Source of the DNA: a virus
Lineage: Duplodnaviria; Heunggongvirae; Uroviricota; Caudoviricetes
Strand: one strand, 5' to 3'
DNA: 7,041 nucleotides
Virus record (IMG/VR): IMGVR_UViG_2778261502_000011
Shown: positions 1-7,041 of the stretch, piece by piece
Numbering within the stretch: position 1 is the first letter of the stretch
Layout: the number at the start of each line of letters is the position of its first letter
The notes under the pieces: generated by a model
What the model saw: the letters and a program-made list of their open reading frames with translations, nothing else
Database searches by the model: none
What the model was told of the DNA's origin: nothing
Position numbers and translations under genes: made by a program

Positions 1-981
1 TTATAACGTCACTCCGCCTTTTAGTGGATTCAGAGCGACGGCATTTTGCAGATAGTCAGGCGCAAGGTGCGCATAGGCCATCGTCTGCTGAATGCTCGCA
101 TGTCCCAGAATCTGTTGCAGTGCGATTATATTGCCCCCATTCATCATGAAATGGCTTGCGAATGTATGCCGCAGGATGTGGGTTGCCTGATTGGGTGGTA
201 TATCAGGTTTCACTCTGCGTAAAATCCCGCAAAATTTCTCATAATCAACTTTGAATAATTTGGCGCTGGCCTCCTCTTTAACTTTTTTCTCCAGTTCCTC
301 AGAAATCGGCACGGTTCGCTTTTTACCGTTTTTGGTTTTCAGGAAGGTAACCCTGCAATTTGTAATCTGTGCTGGTTTTAGCGTGGCAACTTCCGTCCAT
401 CTTCCTCCAGTGCTCAGACATAAAAGCGCGACAAGTAAGTCATCACCAGCCAAAACATTTAACAGTTTTTCGATTTCTGCTTTTTCCAGGAACGTCATTT
501 CAGGGTTGGCCTCCGCCAGTGGCGGCAGTCCGTGAATTGGGTGTTGCCCGGAAAATTCATCCAATTGAATTAATTTTGTGAACATGCCGGATAATCGGTA
601 CATGTCACGGTTTATCGTTGCGGCACTGATACCATCACGTAGTCGCATGGAACGATAATCCATCAAAGCCCTTTTGCTCATCCTGCTCACTGGTATATCA
701 CCTATGCCGCTGATGGTTTTGAGTAGATGATTAAACTCTTTTGTTCCATGCTCGTGGTTTTGCCCGTGATATTTCCACCAGATGTCCAGCAACTCACTCA
801 AAGTCCGGCGGTCTGCTCGCTGGCCTCCCCATTCTTTCTGACTGGCATTGGCGATTGTGTATCGCTCAAATGCTAGTGCTTCAGCTTTTCTTTCGAATTT
901 CCTGCGGATGCGTTTTCCGTCGCGACCGCGAGGTCTAATGTCCACTTCATAGCGACCATCATCGAGCTTCTTAATTGCCAT
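1..981 (-). CDS. int: Tyrosine recombinase, P2-type phage integrase
   Basis: Minus-strand ORF with TAA stop at the reverse complement of 1-3. The ATG at the reverse complement of 979-981 is preceded by GGAGGG 7 nt upstream. The product starts MAIKKLDDGRYEVDIRP and carries the tyrosine-recombinase C-terminal signature (HILRHTFASH ... GH ... MAYAHL with the nucleophilic Tyr). An in-frame upstream ATG at 1011 (336 aa) has no Shine-Dalgarno sequence and is the less likely start. Confidence 0.93.
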   Translation of the reverse strand: MAIKKLDDGRYEVDIRPRGRDGKRIRRKFERKAEALAFERYTIANASQKEWGGQRADRRTLSELLDIWWKYHGQNHEHGTKEFNHLLKTISGIGDIPVSRMSKRALMDYRSMRLRDGISAATINRDMYRLSGMFTKLIQLDEFSGQHPIHGLPPLAEANPEMTFLEKAEIEKLLNVLAGDDLLVALLCLSTGGRWTEVATLKPAQITNCRVTFLKTKNGKKRTVPISEELEKKVKEEASAKLFKVDYEKFCGILRRVKPDIPPNQATHILRHTFASHFMMNGGNIIALQQILGHASIQQTMAYAHLAPDYLQNAVALNPLKGGVTL

Positions 982-1050
982 AAGAAAGCCCTCCGGCGCT
1001 GTATTCACCATCTTGGTAGCAAATGGTGAAAATGTAATCTTTATATAGAG

Positions 1051-1344
1051 TTAGCCAATCCTTTTCGCGGAGTGGTTGGACTCTGTTGACTCTGGCCCAA
1101 TGTGCGCGAGAGCCGGTGCGATTTGTCCTGCGTCCGGCGCGGTTTTATCTGTCATAAGCCATAGAGCATATTTTTGGAATGTGGGATGCATAGTGATTTT
1201 TAGCAAAGCTGTGCCACCGGGTTCAAAGTTTCCTCCTTCATATTTTTTAAGTGTGCTTAGCGGTAACTCTATGATTTCACAGAATTTTGATTGGCTTAGC
1301 CCTTCAGCCTCACGCAAGGCCTTAATCTTTTCGCTTAATTTCAT
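1051..1344 (-). CDS. C: P2 C-type immunity repressor (small HTH DNA-binding protein)
   Basis: 97-aa minus-strand ORF directly upstream of int and co-oriented with it. It faces the early operon across a short intergenic switch region. The protein (MKLSEKIKALREAEGLSQSKFCEIIELPLSTLKKYEGG ... GQIAPALAHIG) resembles the P2 C repressor as recalled, including the GQIAPALAH segment. Confidence 0.8.
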   Translation of the reverse strand: MKLSEKIKALREAEGLSQSKFCEIIELPLSTLKKYEGGNFEPGGTALLKITMHPTFQKYALWLMTDKTAPDAGQIAPALAHIGPESTESNHSAKRIG

Positions 1345-1403
1345 TTGACATGGTGCCTATATAGGGACTAAATTCCCTCAAAACTGGAACCTATATAGGT
1401 TCC
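1345..1403. promoter_or_regulatory. Putative lysis/lysogeny switch: early promoter with two palindromic operator-like repeats
   Basis: Plus strand shows a perfect -35 TTGACA at 1345-1350 and a candidate -10 TAAATT at 1369-1374 (18-nt spacer). The 10-bp palindrome CCTATATAGG occurs twice, at 1356-1365 and 1390-1399, flanking the candidate -10. The second copy sits inside a perfect 18-bp palindrome GGAACCTATATAGGTTCC (1386-1403). The leftward promoter for C/int was not pinned down. Confidence 0.45.
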
Positions 1404-1480
1404 ATTGATTTGAGAATAAACCAGCGTCTAAACGGTTTTGAGTGGTTTAGAAAGGGCTGGATCCTATGAGGGTACCATAT

Positions 1481-1753
1481 ATGGACGCTGAAAATTATGT
1501 GATTCAGTATCCGCTTGATGCGGTTCATGTGGATAAATTTGCTGATTTATTAGGGAAGCCAAAGACAGCCGTCAGTGAAATGGTGAAGGCAAATAAATTA
1601 CCAATTATTGAATTGCGTGATCCTTGCAAACCGAAGGCTCGTGCCGGTGAAAAATGGGTTTTCATTCCTGAGTTTAATCGCGCTGTACGTGAGGCGTTTT
1701 ATAACCGACCGGTTGAACAGCGTGATGCATGGCTTTTGTGGATGGGGTTGTGA
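1481..1753 (+). CDS. cox: Cox-like excisionase / switch regulator
   Basis: First plus-strand gene opposite C. The ATG at 1481 has GAGGG 7 nt upstream and gives a 90-aa product (P2 Cox is about 91 aa). The ORF extends to an upstream ATG at 1466 with a weaker Shine-Dalgarno. The C-terminus (RDAWLLWMGL) resembles the P2 Cox C-terminus as recalled. Confidence 0.78.
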   Translation: MDAENYVIQYPLDAVHVDKFADLLGKPKTAVSEMVKANKLPIIELRDPCKPKARAGEKWVFIPEFNRAVREAFYNRPVEQRDAWLLWMGL

Positions 1754-1755
1754 TT

Positions 1756-1926
1756 ATGAATGAGCCGCGTTGTATTGCTCAGTTATTGCGTAACGAAAGC
1801 CCCAGGGCGATTGACTTTACCATCACCCACGGGAAGGGTCGCAAGGGAATCATTATCCGCACCAAAAAACAGAGTCCGTTAAAAAAGGCTCTGACCTTTC
1901 TGAAAAGCCGGAGGGTCTGGAAATGA
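1756..1926 (+). CDS. Hypothetical small early protein (position of P2 orf78)
   Basis: ORF in the early operon; the six-frame ORF starts at 1729 but the ATG at 1756 follows the cox stop. Its stop TGA at 1924-1926 overlaps the ATG of the next gene (ATGA), indicating translational coupling. No motif recognised. Confidence 0.5.
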   Translation: MNEPRCIAQLLRNESPRAIDFTITHGKGRKGIIIRTKKQSPLKKALTFLKSRRVWK

Positions 1927-2423
1927 CAGTGATGACGCTCAATCTCGTCGAAAAACAGCCAGCAGCTATGCGCCGGATAATTGGTAAGCATCTTGCCGTT
2001 CCTCGCTGGCAGGATACATGTGATTATTATAATCAGATGATGGAGCGCGAACGGCTAACGGTTTGCTTTCATGCGCAGTTAAAACAGCGTCACGCAACGA
2101 TGCGTTTTGAAGAAATGAACGACGTCGAACGTGAACGGCTGGTTTGTGCAATTGATGAATTGCGTGGGGCATTCTCAAAACGCCGTCAGGTTGGCGCAAG
2201 TGAGTATGCATATATTAGTTTTTTAACAGTCAGTCAGCGTCGTACTTTATTTATGCATGCCGGATTGACTGAAAAAGAATTCAATCAGCCATACTGGCGA
2301 ATTAATGAAGAGTCATGTTACTGGCGTGATGCTTTATTCCGTGCATTACGTGAACTATTCAGTTTGTTTGAGTATGCACCGACAATTCTGACGTCGGTAA
2401 AACCAGAGCAATATCTGCATTAA
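1923..2423 (+). CDS. B: P2 gene B-like replication protein
   Basis: 166-aa ORF, the size I recall for P2 gpB, at the expected position after cox. GGAGGG lies about 11 nt upstream of the ATG at 1923. Confidence 0.7.
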   Translation: MTVMTLNLVEKQPAAMRRIIGKHLAVPRWQDTCDYYNQMMERERLTVCFHAQLKQRHATMRFEEMNDVERERLVCAIDELRGAFSKRRQVGASEYAYISFLTVSQRRTLFMHAGLTEKEFNQPYWRINEESCYWRDALFRALRELFSLFEYAPTILTSVKPEQYLH

Positions 2424-2486
2424 GTAATTAACCAGAGTTTTTAACGCACTTAATCGTGCGGGGCTTCTTTTTGCCTGGAGAAAGTC

Positions 2487-2711
2487 ATGCATACAGTTTC
2501 TGAAAATCAGTGCGGTAAATACGCATTACTGCTGCAACAGGCCAGAACCGAAGCACAGGCTGATGCTGCGACGCGCTTTTCTTCTCATCTTGACGCCATG
2601 ATTCGCCATATCACAAAGGCGGAGTTATCCCGCGTGGAGATAGTCGAGCTGCTCAGTCAGGAGTCGGAAAAATTTCACAATATCGGATTGTCTCGCGGGG
2701 AGGTGCTTTGA
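2487..2711 (+). CDS. Hypothetical small protein (P2 orf80 position)
   Basis: 74-aa ORF; ATG at 2487 preceded by GGAGAAA. Its stop TGA at 2709-2711 overlaps the next start. Confidence 0.6.
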
Positions 2712-3013
2712 TGTCCTGTTCTCATTCAGTTGTATTACTGAATAACGCCTTAAAAATCGCCGTTATGAAAAATGGCGATTTGTCTCTTATTCAACTTTGT
2801 CTTGATAAAGAAAAACGCGACATAACTGAATCTGTTATCGCGATTTATCAGAATGAATTAAACCTCCTGTCTGATGTGGTCAATTTACTTGTTAAACGCG
2901 CTGTATTTCACAAGCAAATCTCCTCCGTGGATGAACTGACGAAATTAACGACAGAAATCGCCAGCTATTGCGCTGATGAATTTAAGAAGCTGAACGACAA
3001 AAGGAGCTGGTAA
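2711..3013 (+). CDS. Hypothetical small protein (P2 orf81 position)
   Basis: ATG at 2711 with GGGGAGG about 8 nt upstream (the six-frame track starts at an in-frame TTG at 2708). Its stop TAA at 3011-3013 overlaps the next ATG (TAATG). Confidence 0.6.
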   Translation: MSCSHSVVLLNNALKIAVMKNGDLSLIQLCLDKEKRDITESVIAIYQNELNLLSDVVNLLVKRAVFHKQISSVDELTKLTTEIASYCADEFKKLNDKRSW

Positions 3014-3237
3014 TGCCGGACAACGTAGATTTTATTCAGGAACAACAGGCTGAATTACTGGAGCGCCAGATTAACGCGGCAAGGGTAAAACATTGCGGTG
3101 TTTCTGCGCTGGTTTGCGAAGAGTGTGACGCGCCAATACCTGCTGCCCGTCGTGCGGCTTATCCGTCAGCCACGCGTTGTGTTTCCTGTCAGTCAGTCTT
3201 TGAAGCAAAAAACAAACATTACCGGAGAATGGCATGA
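3013..3237 (+). CDS. TraR/DksA-family C4 zinc-finger protein (P2 orf82-like)
   Basis: 74-aa ORF with AAGGAG 7 nt upstream. It contains CEEC-(17 aa)-CVSC, the CxxC-x17-CxxC spacing typical of DksA/TraR zinc fingers. Confidence 0.75.
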   Translation: MPDNVDFIQEQQAELLERQINAARVKHCGVSALVCEECDAPIPAARRAAYPSATRCVSCQSVFEAKNKHYRRMA

Positions 3238-3509
3238 GTATTCGTATCGAAATTGGCGAACGTTATGTCGTTACCAGTGACAGCTTTCAGTTTATTCTCC
3301 ACGAGAAAAAGAGAGCGGAAAGCGGTAAAAACGCCGGTCAGGAATGGCTGGCGGTGGTTGGTTATTACCCGAAATTAAGCCAGCTCGTTTCCGGCCTGAT
3401 GCATCACGATATTCTGACCGGAAGCGCAAAGTCTTTTGCTGATTTAAACGCGCAGGTTGAGCAACTCAGCAAGCGTTGTTCAGAGGCTTTTGGCTCATAT
3501 GGCCGTTAA
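3234..3509 (+). CDS. Hypothetical small protein (P2 orf83 position)
   Basis: 91-aa ORF; ATG at 3234 overlaps the preceding stop, with GGAGAA upstream. It overlaps the start of the gene A remnant by 11 nt. Confidence 0.6.
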   Translation: MSIRIEIGERYVVTSDSFQFILHEKKRAESGKNAGQEWLAVVGYYPKLSQLVSGLMHHDILTGSAKSFADLNAQVEQLSKRCSEAFGSYGR

Positions 3510-3787
3510 AGCCTCCGGGCGTTTTGTCCCTCCGTCAGCATTTGCCGCAGGCACCGGTAAGGCGTTTACCGGTGCTTATGCATGGAACGCGCCACGCGAG
3601 GCTGTCGGGCGCGAAAGACCCCTTACACGTGACGAGATGCGTCAGGTGCAAGGTGTTTTATCCACGATTAACCGCCTGCCTTACTTTTTGCGCTCGCTGT
3701 TTACTTCACGCTATGACTACATCCGGCGCAATAAAAGCCCGGTATCCGGTTGCTGATGAGTGGTCGGTTTTTTCAATTAAACAATAA
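3499..3787 (+). pseudogene. A: Remnant of replication initiator gene A: N-terminal ~85 codons fused out of frame to the last ~12 codons
   Basis: From the ATG at 3499 the product reads MAVKASGRFVPPSAFAAGTGK...YDYIRRNKSPV, matching my recollection of the P2 gpA N-terminus, and stops at 3754-3756 after 85 codons. In the +2 frame the next codons read YPVADEW...* (stop at 3785-3787), resembling the gpA C-terminus. The junction lies at the short direct repeat CCGGT / CCGGT (3740-3744 and 3746-3750). A roughly 760-aa protein has been reduced to under 100 aa. Confidence 0.7.
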
Positions 3788-3839
3788 TGGCTACTGCCGC
3801 AGCGTTGTGGGAATGCTATAGTGTTTGTAGAATTATCCC

Positions 3840-3870
3840 ATGAAAAACAACTAATTAATCTGTTTTTCAT
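3840..3870. repeat. Perfect 10-bp inverted repeat (ATGAAAAACA / TGTTTTTCAT) with 11-bp spacer
   Basis: Read directly: ATGAAAAACA at 3840-3849 and its reverse complement TGTTTTTCAT at 3861-3870, in the AT-rich intergenic region between the A remnant and the methyltransferase. A T-run follows at about 3883-3889. It could be a protein-binding site or a weak terminator or hairpin; function is unknown. Confidence 0.5.
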
Positions 3871-3934
3871 ATTGAACTAATTTTTTATGGCCACAGTTGT
3901 TAAAAAGTGAGAACATAATCTTGTTCAAAACCTG

Positions 3935-3988
3935 CTTCTATATACGGAGGCTTTCGCTATAATACGCGGTCGGTTTTAGGAGGGGATA
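3935..3988 (+). promoter_or_regulatory. Putative promoter and RBS of the methyltransferase gene
   Basis: Consensus -10 TATAAT at 3958-3963 with only a weak -35 (CTTCTA at 3935-3940, 17-nt spacer). Shine-Dalgarno AGGAGG at 3978-3983 lies 5 nt before the ATG at 3989. Confidence 0.45.
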
Positions 3989-4933
3989 ATGCCAACAGTA
4001 GTTTCACTTTTTTCTGGATGCGGTGGTTCCGATGCGGGGGTTCTGAGAGCTGGCTTTGATGTGCTTATGGCCAACGATATCTTGCCGTATGCGCGCGATG
4101 TTTATATTGCCAATCATCCAGAAACTGATTACATTTTAGGCAATATTGCTGATGTAACTACTTTTCCTAAATCTGATTTGCTAGTAGGTTGTTATCCATG
4201 TCAGGGATTCAGCCAGGGTGGTGCGCGTAAGGCCGATCGAAAAATTAATACTCTTTATTTAGAGTTTGCTAGAGCTTTAAACAATATAAAGCCTAAAGCT
4301 TTTATAGTAGAAAACGTGTCTGGTATGGTTAGAAAAAACTTCGAGCATTTGTTATCTGACCAGATCAGGGTTTTTACTGAAGCAGGTTATGCTGTTTCAG
4401 CAAAAGTTTTGAATGCGGCTGAATATGGAGTAGCGCAGGAAAGAAAAAGAATATTTATCGTAGGAATCCGTAATGATTTCAAAGTTAAGTACGAGTTCCC
4501 TCAGCCAACTCATGGGCCGGCGACTGGCGTCAACTATGTTACTATTAAAGATGCTATAGGGCATTTACCTGAATGGCCAGAAGGTGAATTTTATGATATG
4601 GGGTTCCATTGGTATTATATGTCTCGCAATCGTCGCCAAGATTGGGATCAAATTTCAAAGACAATAGTTGCTAATGCAAGGCATATGCCGTTGCATCCTA
4701 TCAGTCCTTCGATGGAGAAAGTAAGAACTGATGAATGGAGGTTTGTTGAGGATCGGAGAGCTCGCAGATTCAGTTTTCGAGAGGCAGCACTATTACAAGG
4801 GTTTGAGGATCTAGTGTTTCCCGAAACAAATGCTGCAAGTCTTGGCATGAAATACACGGTGGTTGGTAATGCAGTGCCTCCGCCGCTTTTTGAAGCTGTA
4901 ACGAAGGCATTGCCAATAGAATTATGGGATTGA
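3989..4933 (+). CDS. DNA (cytosine-5)-methyltransferase
   Basis: 314-aa ORF with a strong RBS. It carries the canonical C5-MTase motifs in the correct order: FSGCGG (motif I, AdoMet binding), PCQGFS (motif IV, catalytic Cys), ENV (motif VI), QERKR (motif VIII) and GNAV (motif X), with a short variable region between VIII and IX for target recognition. Confidence 0.92.
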   Translation: MPTVVSLFSGCGGSDAGVLRAGFDVLMANDILPYARDVYIANHPETDYILGNIADVTTFPKSDLLVGCYPCQGFSQGGARKADRKINTLYLEFARALNNIKPKAFIVENVSGMVRKNFEHLLSDQIRVFTEAGYAVSAKVLNAAEYGVAQERKRIFIVGIRNDFKVKYEFPQPTHGPATGVNYVTIKDAIGHLPEWPEGEFYDMGFHWYYMSRNRRQDWDQISKTIVANARHMPLHPISPSMEKVRTDEWRFVEDRRARRFSFREAALLQGFEDLVFPETNAASLGMKYTVVGNAVPPPLFEAVTKALPIELWD

Positions 4934-4940
4934 TAATCTA

Positions 4941-5930
4941 TTAAGGCTCTGGATTTAATGTATAAAGTTCTTCTTCAAATTCGCGAAACCAATCAGAGGT
5001 AGTTATCGCTTCCCATTGGTTTGCCTTATCAAGTAGATATATGATCCTCAACCTATCTAATAATAATACACCAGCGGTTGCATGTGTGCTTACCCATTCG
5101 CCATTTGCTTCCCGATAGAAAACAGGCGTGAACATTGTTGATGGATGCTGGAAAGCAATTTGGAAATAGGTGGTCAGTTTTAACACGTTAGCCTCTAATG
5201 TTTTGCTTGGCCACCCTGTTTCTTGTGCACCACATTGACCAAGAATTCCATAGTTGCTAGTTTGACCATCAGGAAATTCCACTGTAGCAATTAGGTCAAA
5301 CCCAGCATCACCAGATGTGGGAGCTTTATTTATTTCCCTTGTGTTTAAACTACAAACTCCAAGATCTTTTCCTAAAATTTGTAGAGCATTCCGAAGATTC
5401 GTTCCATAATATTTTTGCCTATCATCGGAGTTAGCATCAAAAATTCTTACGGTGCCATGTGCAGGTAAGAGAGAAATCATTGCAACTTTACATACTCTGG
5501 CAAAGCTCTTTGCCCAACGTTGTGCTGCTCCTCTAATCGACTTAAAGGATCTAAGTCTAGAGCAGCAAAGGAGAAAAACATATATTCTTTGTTGTTGGTT
5601 TAGATTTTCTTTAATAATTATCTCATCACCTGAAATTATAAATGGATATATCTTTCCAAGAGCGCTTTCTCTATATTCGAGTTGTGTCCAAACATCTTCT
5701 AGTTGCTCTTCAAAACGATCATTTCTCTCTGCGTCTCCATCAATTTCTTCTTCAAAATTACATTCTTCATCAATTTCTTCAACACTTGTCATGCCGAATT
5801 TTCTTACTGAATCTAAATCATTTTTATGCAGAGAGTTACGTCCGGTATAATTAATCACCGTGAGTAACTCGGCTAAATCTGCAAACAAATGGGGAGAGTT
5901 GGGATGCATAACTCCTACTTCAAAAGTCAT
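4941..5930 (-). CDS. Uncharacterised protein, downstream partner of the ParB-family gene (function unknown)
   Basis: Long minus-strand ORF (track: 4941..5936, 331 aa) with three consecutive in-frame starts (GTG 5936, ATG 5933, ATG 5930). The ATG at 5930 has GAGGT about 4 nt upstream. The start overlaps the stop of the upstream gene (5920-5922), so the two are translationally coupled. The protein has an acidic segment (EEIDEECNFEEEIDGDAERNDRFEEQLED). I find no Walker A motif and no catalytic motif I can name. Confidence 0.75.
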   Translation of the reverse strand: MTFEVGVMHPNSPHLFADLAELLTVINYTGRNSLHKNDLDSVRKFGMTSVEEIDEECNFEEEIDGDAERNDRFEEQLEDVWTQLEYRESALGKIYPFIISGDEIIIKENLNQQQRIYVFLLCCSRLRSFKSIRGAAQRWAKSFARVCKVAMISLLPAHGTVRIFDANSDDRQKYYGTNLRNALQILGKDLGVCSLNTREINKAPTSGDAGFDLIATVEFPDGQTSNYGILGQCGAQETGWPSKTLEANVLKLTTYFQIAFQHPSTMFTPVFYREANGEWVSTHATAGVLLLDRLRIIYLLDKANQWEAITTSDWFREFEEELYTLNPEP

Positions 5931-7041
5931 CATCACCTCTGCTATTTTTCTCTGCTATTTCAGAACCTATAAGCTTAATATGTTTATTGATTCTTCGTGC
6001 TACTTCATGAGCCTGTCTATCATACTCTACTGTGGCAACCATGCCTGCTGCATCTATCAAAGCCGCTTCAACTTGATAAAGTAACTGGAGAAAGTCCTTA
6101 GTAATATCAGATGTCAATTGGTAGGCCACTGCGAGTGGAGCCCCCATTCGGAATTGCTCCAATGCCTTAGGGCTACTGACAACAGCAGCTAATTCTCTTA
6201 AATTACGTGACTCTCCAACACGAGTTTTTTTATCCTCACCTTTTTTATATAACCACTCAGTTAGCTCTTTTATTTCTTTGTTCTTTAAGCTATTAGAGTT
6301 GATAATAGGATGACTTGGTATTGTGTCTCCATCGTCTTCGATTGAAACTCCGACAAATTGGCCTAACCGCTCATCAGCAAGTGCTGTTGATAATACTGAA
6401 AATTTAATCGTTTCTTCATCTAGTTTTTCAATACCATAAAAATCATTTTCTTTAATGATTTCATACACCGCTAAAGCGTCTAGGTTACGCTTGATATGAT
6501 CCCTACGACTGCCAATAGCTCTGGCAACCTCATAGTAGCGTAGCATCGGATCCTGATTTGCATTGGTATAATCAAAAAGCTGTTTAATATATCGAGCTTT
6601 TGATAAGGGCTCCCATTGTTTGACACCAGTAATATGTCTGAAACCAAGATACGGAAGAATCTCTTCTCTTGTTTGGCGCTCAATGACAGGAACACGATCG
6701 ACTGTATGTTTTGCATTTGATGCAATTTCTCGTAGTCGAGCACTTGGATTTTCACATAGTGTCGGATCGCGTAATAATTTAACTGCGGATAGGCGACGGT
6801 TTCCTTCAACTACAATGTACTTCCCCGGCGCGACACTGTCAGGAATGACAATCAATGGTTCTCCAGGGAAAAAACCATTTTCCGCAATAGCACTCATTAG
6901 ATCTTCGATAGATGTTGAGGTTGCTATGTAGTTAATCATTCCCAATTGGTCACGAGACACGCCTTCAGGAAGTCTTGGGTTTTCTGTGTCAAGTTCCAAA
7001 TCATCTAGCGGAACATAAAGTATTTCTGAATCAGCAATCAT
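5920..7041 (-). CDS. ParB/Spo0J-family protein (ParB N-terminal domain plus HTH) with an uncharacterised C-terminal extension of about 180 aa
   Basis: 373-aa minus-strand ORF whose ATG is the reverse complement of 7039-7041, at the window edge. The N-terminal ~90 residues fit the ParB N-terminal domain pattern: ENPR (res 20-23), SIEDLMSAIAENGFFPGEPLIVIP (box I-like) and YIVVEGNRRLSAVKLL (GxRR arginine patch, nt 6784-6807). A box III-like VIERQTREEIL and an HTH-like YYEVARAIGSRRDHIKRNLDAL (res ~168-192) follow, resembling the Spo0J recognition helix region. No HNH or other nuclease motif was recognised in the C-terminal part. Confidence 0.8.
   Translation of the reverse strand: MIADSEILYVPLDDLELDTENPRLPEGVSRDQLGMINYIATSTSIEDLMSAIAENGFFPGEPLIVIPDSVAPGKYIVVEGNRRLSAVKLLRDPTLCENPSARLREIASNAKHTVDRVPVIERQTREEILPYLGFRHITGVKQWEPLSKARYIKQLFDYTNANQDPMLRYYEVARAIGSRRDHIKRNLDALAVYEIIKENDFYGIEKLDEETIKFSVLSTALADERLGQFVGVSIEDDGDTIPSHPIINSNSLKNKEIKELTEWLYKKGEDKKTRVGESRNLRELAAVVSSPKALEQFRMGAPLAVAYQLTSDITKDFLQLLYQVEAALIDAAGMVATVEYDRQAHEVARRINKHIKLIGSEIAEKNSRGDDDF

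Follow-up and report, generated by a model that had tools for sequence, protein, structure and literature searches.

The DNA analysed here (the window; one strand of 7,041 bases, numbered from its first letter) is the left arm of an Escherichia coli P2-like prophage, adjoining cpxP. Its genes and features are as follows.

1-981, minus strand: integrase, 100% identical to ATCC 8739 F1719_RS18935 (326 aa as annotated in the reference; the longest ORF is 1-1011)
1051-1344, minus strand: immunity repressor C homologue, 97 aa, with a helix-turn-helix (HTH), intact and identical to the ATCC 8739 reference
1481-1753, plus strand: cox homologue, 90 aa, intact; Cox family DNA-binding protein (PF10743 at the equivalent gene of contig L002, described below)
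1923-2423, plus strand: replication gene B homologue, 166 aa, intact (PF26815, Phage_RepB)
2487-3509, plus strand: homologues of orf80-83 (DUF2732, DUF5405, TraR/DksA zinc finger, DUF5405), all intact
3499-3756, plus strand: truncated gene A ORF, 82 gpA residues followed by SGC and a stop; phrog_91 N-terminus
3739-3750, plus strand: CCGGT-AT-CCGGT, with one CCGGT copy from each flank of the join
3742-3744, plus strand: deletion junction, a 3-bp overlap (GTA) common to A nt 244-246 and nt 2232-2234
3745-3787, plus strand: final 43 bases of gene A, in a different frame from the 5' part, stop codon at 3785-3787
3746-3773, plus strand: terminator-like hairpin and T-run at the natural end of gene A, retained
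3989-4933, plus strand: C-5 cytosine DNA methyltransferase, 314 aa, intact (PF00145, 5e-65; TIGR00675; PADLOC DruM2 and type II MTase models)
4941-5936, minus strand: cargo protein with no assigned function, 329-331 aa, intact (phrog_3984)
5920-7041, minus strand: ParB N-terminal-domain protein, 373 aa, intact (PADLOC PD-Lambda-5_A, 1.6e-28; TIGR00180 below cut-off; phrog_3694)

An intact reference for this element is found in E. coli ATCC 8739 (NZ_CP043852.1; locus L001), which carries the same sequence between cpxP and fieF. The ATCC 8739 prophage (NZ_CP043852.1 3844135-3876500) is complete, with genes for portal, terminase, capsid, lysis and tail proteins as well as D and ogr. With the exception of A, the ORFs of the window (int, C, cox, B, orf80-83 and the three cargo genes) match those of this prophage at every base, which agrees with an earlier note that had been made from the letters alone and had read Int, C, cox and B as intact. 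The att core of the integrase is a 47-bp sequence of the cpxP terminator. A further ORF of 56 aa (MNEPRCIAQLL...) can be found between cox and B at 1756-1926; it is the counterpart of P2 orf78 and is unannotated in the ATCC 8739 RefSeq record. Between the repressor gene and cox, positions 1352-1405 contain two copies of the palindrome CCTATATAGG (GGTGCCTATATAGGGAC and GGAACCTATATAGGTTCC), which may be half-sites of the operator for this immunity type. The start of contig L003, described below, corresponds to window position 1385 and falls between the two copies.

The cassette at 3989-7041 sits in the A-to-Q hotspot. Its methyltransferase is of the Dcm type, the product of 4941-5936 gave no Pfam, NCBIfam or PADLOC match, and no recognisable PD-Lambda-5 partner was found beside the ParB N-terminal-domain protein within the cassette. 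A diverged version of this three-gene layout is also present in the P2-like locus L015 and at least partly in L017, where the methylase and the start of a 309-aa gene are seen at the end of the locus. The cassette may represent an undescribed defence or restriction-modification variant. The cargo had earlier been described as complete and served by its own promoter. Its genes are indeed intact, but a sigma-70 consensus scan of 3400-4100, the region leading from A to the methyltransferase, gave no promoter; a perfect TATAAT at 3958-3963 is accompanied by a poor -35 hexamer.

Gene A is the one departure from the reference. A base-by-base comparison showed that window positions 1-3744 and 3742-7041 are each 100% identical to NZ_CP043852.1, and that 1,988 reference bases are absent between them. 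The reference gene encodes a 758-aa "replication endonuclease" (L001 23499-25775); the lost segment corresponds to nt 247-2234 of A, and only nt 1-246 and the last 43 nt remain in the window. The ORF at 3499-3756 encodes 85 aa, of which residues 1-82 are identical (82/82) to the ATCC 8739 replication endonuclease and are followed by SGC and a stop codon. The frame ending at 3787 reads YPVADEWSVFSIKQ and then a stop, which is the exact C-terminus of the 758-aa protein; this 3' remnant is out of frame because 1,988 is not a multiple of three. The earlier note had anticipated much of this, namely an ORF that begins like gpA and ends after 85 codons, an out-of-frame gpA C-terminus behind it, and a loss of roughly 2 kb at a join within 3740-3750. 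These points are confirmed by the alignment, in which the flanks map to the two ends of the full-length ATCC 8739 gene with a single gap and the junction lies at 3742-3744.

The bases shared at the join are a different matter. With a slash marking the break, the intact left site reads GCCCGGTA/CACGGG (CCCGGTA/CACGGG) and the intact right site reads TTCACGTA/TCCGGTT, and the only bases that they have in common there are GTA (3742-3744). By our own arithmetic, an overlap of at least 3 bp is expected by chance at approximately 5% of random joins. Both parental sites are centred on a TA dinucleotide, at A nt 245-246 (CCCGG-TA-CACGG) and A nt 2233-2234 (CACG-TA-TCCGG). The substrate had previously been taken to be a 5-bp direct repeat, with microhomology-mediated or slippage deletion between two copies of CCGGT, and two such copies do adjoin the join. 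The copy at 3739-3743 is left flank and the copy at 3746-3750 is right flank. Loss between direct repeats leaves a single copy of a sequence that was present at both parental sites, a pattern that is seen for GTA (3 bp) only and not for CCGGT. Slippage on CCGGT would have yielded a product reading GCCCGGTTGCTG, which differs from the one observed. Since each flank contributes one copy and both survive, where repeat-mediated loss would have left one, CCGGT was not the recombination substrate, and we find slippage between its copies hardly credible.

A further reading, under which the 85-codon ORF would be a naturally short and independent gene, is contradicted by related genomes. The 200 bases over the left breakpoint run continuously inside a full-length "replication endonuclease" in 1,599 of 1,615 E. 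coli records, so the short ORF is not a natural short gene. In the remaining 16 records, which are from complete genomes, the A gene is broken near nt 246.

The window corresponds to positions 6503-13543 of contig NLUV01000052.1 (L002) in the NCBI draft assembly GCA_002233275.1, with zero mismatches, and this contig is recorded in two samples. The exact 85-aa product, with identical DNA, also occurs in the Logan assembly SRR11484596 (L003), and together with one further similar contig the allele is found in three contigs in total. In a junction-centred BLAST search of 5,426 complete E. coli genomes, none of the 1,611 genomes with flank matches spanned the junction, and exact-junction scans of GTDB representative genomes and of JGI metagenome contigs were likewise empty. 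Both L002 and L003 derive from short reads and break near cos, which points to repeats and possibly to a second P2-like prophage, and it could be asked on these grounds whether gene A is really intact and the junction an artefact of assembly or sequencing. The same junction is nevertheless present in the NCBI assembly, in the second sample with the same contig, and in the independent Logan assembly, while analogous deletions at the same left site occur in complete long-read genomes. Because the contigs pass unbranched through the junction and an overlap of 3 bp is too short to produce a k-mer (de Bruijn) mis-join, we consider the allele to be genuine and an artefact to be exceedingly improbable.

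The 3' end of L003 coincides with L001 29274, where the P2 cos sequence of 19 nt (GGCGAGGCGGGGAAAGCAC; L001 29256-29274) has its final base, and L002 ends 47 nt beyond cos. Both ends lie just within the region where P2-like phages become conserved, which fits a repeat boundary and would imply a second P2-like element; alternatively, the L003 end could be the physical cos end of packaged DNA. On the chromosomal side, L002 1-6502 and L001 13499-20000 show 48 differences in 6,502 positions, but not one was seen in the prophage. This disparity suggests that the same phage entered two E. coli lineages recently, and that the deletion came later. The deletion itself appears to be recent, since it is all that separates the element from the intact ATCC 8739 copy over 7,041 + 292 bases.

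The consequences for replication are severe. In the intact protein, the Phage_GPA domain (PF05840) spans residues 133-462, wholly inside the deleted segment. The N-terminus of the 85-aa stub matches phrog_91 ("nicking at origin of replication", 1.2e-14), and the stub contains no Pfam domain. The nick at the P2 origin is annotated at 29892, equivalent to A nt 1859; the reference has the same 50 bp around this site, and they fall within the deleted nt 247-2234, so that the site is missing from gene A of the window. Because the catalytic domain is deleted and the origin is gone as well, the stub is a pseudogene remnant rather than a functional member of the gpA family. In P2, the action of gpA is restricted to cis, and the origin is part of gene A itself. 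It follows that the element can neither replicate nor be complemented, and, since a phage that lacks both A and ori cannot propagate, the deletion would have to have arisen in the prophage state, within the host lineage.

The product of gene A is itself a rolling-circle nicking-joining enzyme, and many of the right-hand deletion partners described below are concentrated close to ori, in the 3' portion of A. Both facts could be accommodated if gpA, as a rolling-circle initiator, had produced deletions of the type known from rolling-circle plasmids, in which one endpoint lies at the origin nick. The nick site (GCGCCTCG/GAG), on the other hand, is internal to the segment deleted from the window and is never an endpoint, and the junction sites are unlike the ori sequence. 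We therefore ruled out a deletion made by gpA at ori, an explanation that we hold to be very improbable.

The earlier note had gone on to suggest a grounded prophage kept for its immunity and cargo functions. The state of the element agrees with the first half of this suggestion, in that it is integrated (cpxP, int and the prophage interior are continuous on the contig), an essential function (A together with ori) is inactivated, and the immunity and cargo genes are intact. The notion of retention fared less well: we found no signs of long-term retention or selection (spread, age or purifying selection), there being zero substitutions relative to the intact copy and no occurrence of the allele in the 5,426 complete genomes. 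Judged from its sequence, the deleted allele looks like a recent, rare event rather than a domesticated remnant. Taken alone, this deletion is ordinary prophage decay. It does show how a single event can turn an active P2-type phage into an immune element that bears cargo but cannot replicate, and it cautions annotators that a short ORF labelled "hypothetical" behind orf83 in a P2-like prophage is a gpA stub.

The junction, however, has counterparts elsewhere. The top matches in the junction BLAST search were three complete genomes (L005, L006 and L007) with P2-type prophages at the yegR site, in which A is cut at the same nucleotide as in the window; the sequence behind the break comes from lysC, from the 3' end of P and from the beginning of M. 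When the 85-aa stub was used in a protein word-index search (68 candidates), 63 short proteins were obtained. Stub proteins were tracked against intact gpA, their foreign tails were mapped onto P2 and the ATCC prophage, and loci that had been read directly were added. We obtained 36 independent foreign-tail junctions with a left break in codons 42-83, comprising 13 at codon 82/83, 12 at codon 42/43, seven at codons 53-57 and four elsewhere, counts that give only rough relative frequencies because the word-index search is of limited recall. The break after codon 82 was verified at the DNA level in eight independent junctions (the window, L005, L006, L007, L015, L017, L018 and L020), and their right partners differ. 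Right-hand sites are also re-used, four of them with different left sites: the right site of the window, P2 30266-7, is joined in L010 to the codon-42 site, and the others are P2 30163-4 (L012 and L014), P2 29741-3 (L015 and L016) and P2 8377-9 (L005 and P0052).

Such recurrence could in principle reflect nothing but selection against a functional A acting upon random illegitimate recombination that has no site preference. The overlaps are short (0-5 bp), like those of E. coli microhomology joins, and frameshift alleles of A are common too. Among the core genes of defective P2-like elements, gpA is the one most frequently found as a pseudogene (PMC13586616), which makes selection for, or tolerance of, the loss of A plausible. 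What selection for A loss cannot do is set endpoints to single nucleotides, and 25 of the 36 junctions lie at just two codons; neither would it explain the four right-hand sites that are shared between different left sites. We consider random joining to be unlikely.

Several other features of the surveyed sequences are worth recording. The gpA fragments P0018, P0020, P0023, P0025-28, P0042, P0044, P0080-86 and P0096-97 are frameshift alleles whose tails represent an alternative frame of A; either A is also often inactivated by small indels, or such frameshifts are homopolymer sequencing errors. Further internal deletions are present in five of the prophage loci, at L006 8530-8535 (joining O to I), L007 6450-6456 (M to FII), L010 13636-13637 (Q to D), L012 3142-3144 (int to cox) and L015 2184-2185 (B to orf82). 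Their overlaps include TA in three of the five cases (GGTARAC, TA and ATA) and are without it in two (AAWCCG and TG). Many "complete" E. coli chromosome records begin at nt 1 of gene A of a P2-like element (H74, H79, H84, H91 and others; record positions 147-346), presumably because start-fixing software took A for the chromosome start gene.

Two of the gpA stubs carry tails from the opposite strand and are of the inversion type: P0022, which breaks at codon 71 and continues at P2 22757 (minus strand), and P0053, which breaks at codon 42 and continues at position 18099 of the ATCC prophage (minus strand). Because these joins are of the inversion type, breakage and rejoining is favoured over simple slippage. 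We regard site-preferential break-and-rejoin at TA sites as well supported across the prophages surveyed. For the window, we are accordingly rather confident of a single non-homologous deletion of 1,988 bp in a P2-like left arm, with a GTA overlap, that came about through site-preferential breakage and rejoining at TA and not through slippage.

A site-specific recombinase acting on pseudo-sites would also give site preference, and could be either a phage integrase, in an eduction-like reaction, or a serine invertase of the Cin/Pin type with a 2-bp TA crossover. Ten bases of the P2 attP core (reverse complement CCCTTACACGGG) agree with the codon-42 site, and the codon-82 site is similar to the core. 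An invertase of the recombinase family is among the products of the ATCC-type prophage, and an invertase would be in keeping with the two inversion-type joins. A 2-bp staggered crossover also explains the junctions of L005 and L015, where the left allele has GTG instead of GTA and the product retains the left TG against the right TA. The same hot spots are found, however, in carrier prophages that have three different integrases with unrelated att cores, which argues against integrase pseudo-site recombination; the att core of the window type (GACACCATCCCTGTCTTCCCCCACATGATGTGGGGGTTTTTTTTATC) is unrelated to the junction sites, and no endpoint lies at att. As for an invertase, none is seen in P2 itself or in L006, and the partner sites are not recognisable as inverted-repeat recombinase sites. 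Int-mediated recombination was rejected as a general mechanism once the att cores had been compared and the third integrase type had been found, and a recombinase of either kind seems to us a little less likely still than random joining.

Within the reading that we prefer, breakage and rejoining at preferred TA sites, the junctions share a partial sequence rule. Their overlaps consist mostly of TA with zero to three more bases. The joined TA dinucleotides of gene A are at nt 126, 171, 245, 370, 1708, 1741, 2130 and 2233, and others are in lysC, P, Q, M and D. Position +4 of the TA is G in 26 of 38 half-sites, the background being 24%; read on the opposite strand, this G is a C that lies four bases 5' of the TA. 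The symmetrical form C-N3-TA-N3-G occurs at 11 of 25 junction TA sites as compared with 5.8% of P2 TAs, the motif having been defined post hoc on mostly the same junctions. Ten of the 91 TAs of gene A have this form (nt 69, 126, 171, 245, 370, 710, 1708, 1741, 2130 and 2233), and eight of the ten are observed junction sites, both sites of the window among them. When a matrix was trained on right-hand sites only, the TAs at A nt 245, 171 and 126 took the second, third and fourth places of the 14 in A nt 1-300.

The rule does not hold throughout. L017, L018 and L020, whose junctions were seen after it had been set, match C-N3-TA-N3-G poorly, and the hot site at A nt 161 does not match the TA rule at all. 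A second protein search, for the predicted sites at nt 370 and nt 710, recovered mainly contig-end partials and frameshift alleles, together with one adapter-contaminated contig. In P0068 (an ENA contig of 865 nt), gpA residue 236 is followed by RSEEHTSELQS, a translation of the Illumina TruSeq adapter, making this a public metagenome contig with adapter read-through. A structural basis for the breaks is apparent at one position, the codon-82 site, where a hairpin (-7.6 kcal/mol, z = -3.0) places the break in its loop; because no other site has a convincing hairpin, hairpin structure cannot explain all break sites.

The TA rule resembles the cleavage preference of a known enzyme, a match in the literature that we found after the rule had been derived. 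In vivo, the motif at which E. coli topoisomerase I cleaves has a required C four nucleotides upstream of cleavage at a TA dinucleotide (Sutormin et al., 2022; PMC9352719). The sites of the window read CCGG/TA (top strand) and CGTG/TA (bottom strand) at the left and CACG/TA (top) and CGGA/TA (bottom) at the right, so that the C four nucleotides 5' of TA, in the form C-N3-TA, is present at both sites and on both strands. In other respects the two differ: the topoisomerase I motif is AT-rich and asymmetric (TCNTTA/T; PMC9352719), whereas the junction sites are GC-flanked and symmetric, and the position of TA relative to the scissile bond may differ between them by one base. In topA point mutants, short deletions and duplications that do not depend on repeats become more frequent at hot spots (PMC6954433). 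In the literature that we covered, we found no demonstration of kilobase deletions by topoisomerase I. Bierne, Ehrlich and Michel reportedly described, in 1997, topA-dependent non-homologous deletions at arrested forks.

The retention of TG in the L005 and L015 products fits a 2-nt stagger and not a 4-nt one. DNA gyrase was rejected on this reasoning, as its 4-bp stagger does not reproduce these junctions while a 2-bp stagger does; the gyrase Topo-Seq paper gives no central motif comparable with the junction sites.

The most specific candidate mechanism, albeit a weak one, is thus an aberrant rejoining between two cleavage sites of a type IA topoisomerase, topoisomerase I. Two staggered single-strand cleavages by such an enzyme could be followed by rejoining across sites, and the deletion in the window would then be the nt 245 x nt 2233 product of TA-site joining. 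We propose tentatively, as a possibility that we ourselves think more doubtful than probable, that P2-like prophages are repeatedly disabled by deletions, and by occasional inversions, that join a fixed set of TA dinucleotides through type IA topoisomerase cleavage and rejoining. If this were true, the grounding of prophages and illegitimate recombination over kilobases in E. coli would have a route that is directed by sequence. More generally, if the same few nucleotides repeatedly break A in unrelated lysogens, prophage inactivation would be partly sequence-programmed and not random. The catalogue of junctions also provides a testable handle on an old question, namely which enzyme is behind non-homologous deletions in E. 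coli.

In comparison with P2 (NC_001895; A at 28034-30319, nick at 29892), the intact ATCC 8739 relative has an A gene that is 96.2% identical at the DNA level, an identical ori context and the same gene order (int-C-cox-B-orf80-83-A-cargo-cos). The window differs from P2 in its integrase, att site, repressor and cargo, P2 carrying orf91-tin-old. Defective P2-like prophages that keep defence genes have already been described, with gpA as the core gene most affected (PMC13586616, NAR 2026). Like these grounded prophages (PMC13586616; reviewed in PMC6379469), the element in the window is integrated, has an inactivated A (termed "primase GpA" there), and retains intact A-to-Q cargo and regulatory genes. 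It differs from them in that a single precise 1,988-bp deletion has removed ori too, and in that it is otherwise identical to an intact phage, with no sign of long residence. The window is thus a new and very young example of the defective P2-like prophages with inactivated gpA. The new part that is worth following is not the deletion itself, which belongs to this known class, but the recurrence of both of its breakpoints in many unrelated prophages.
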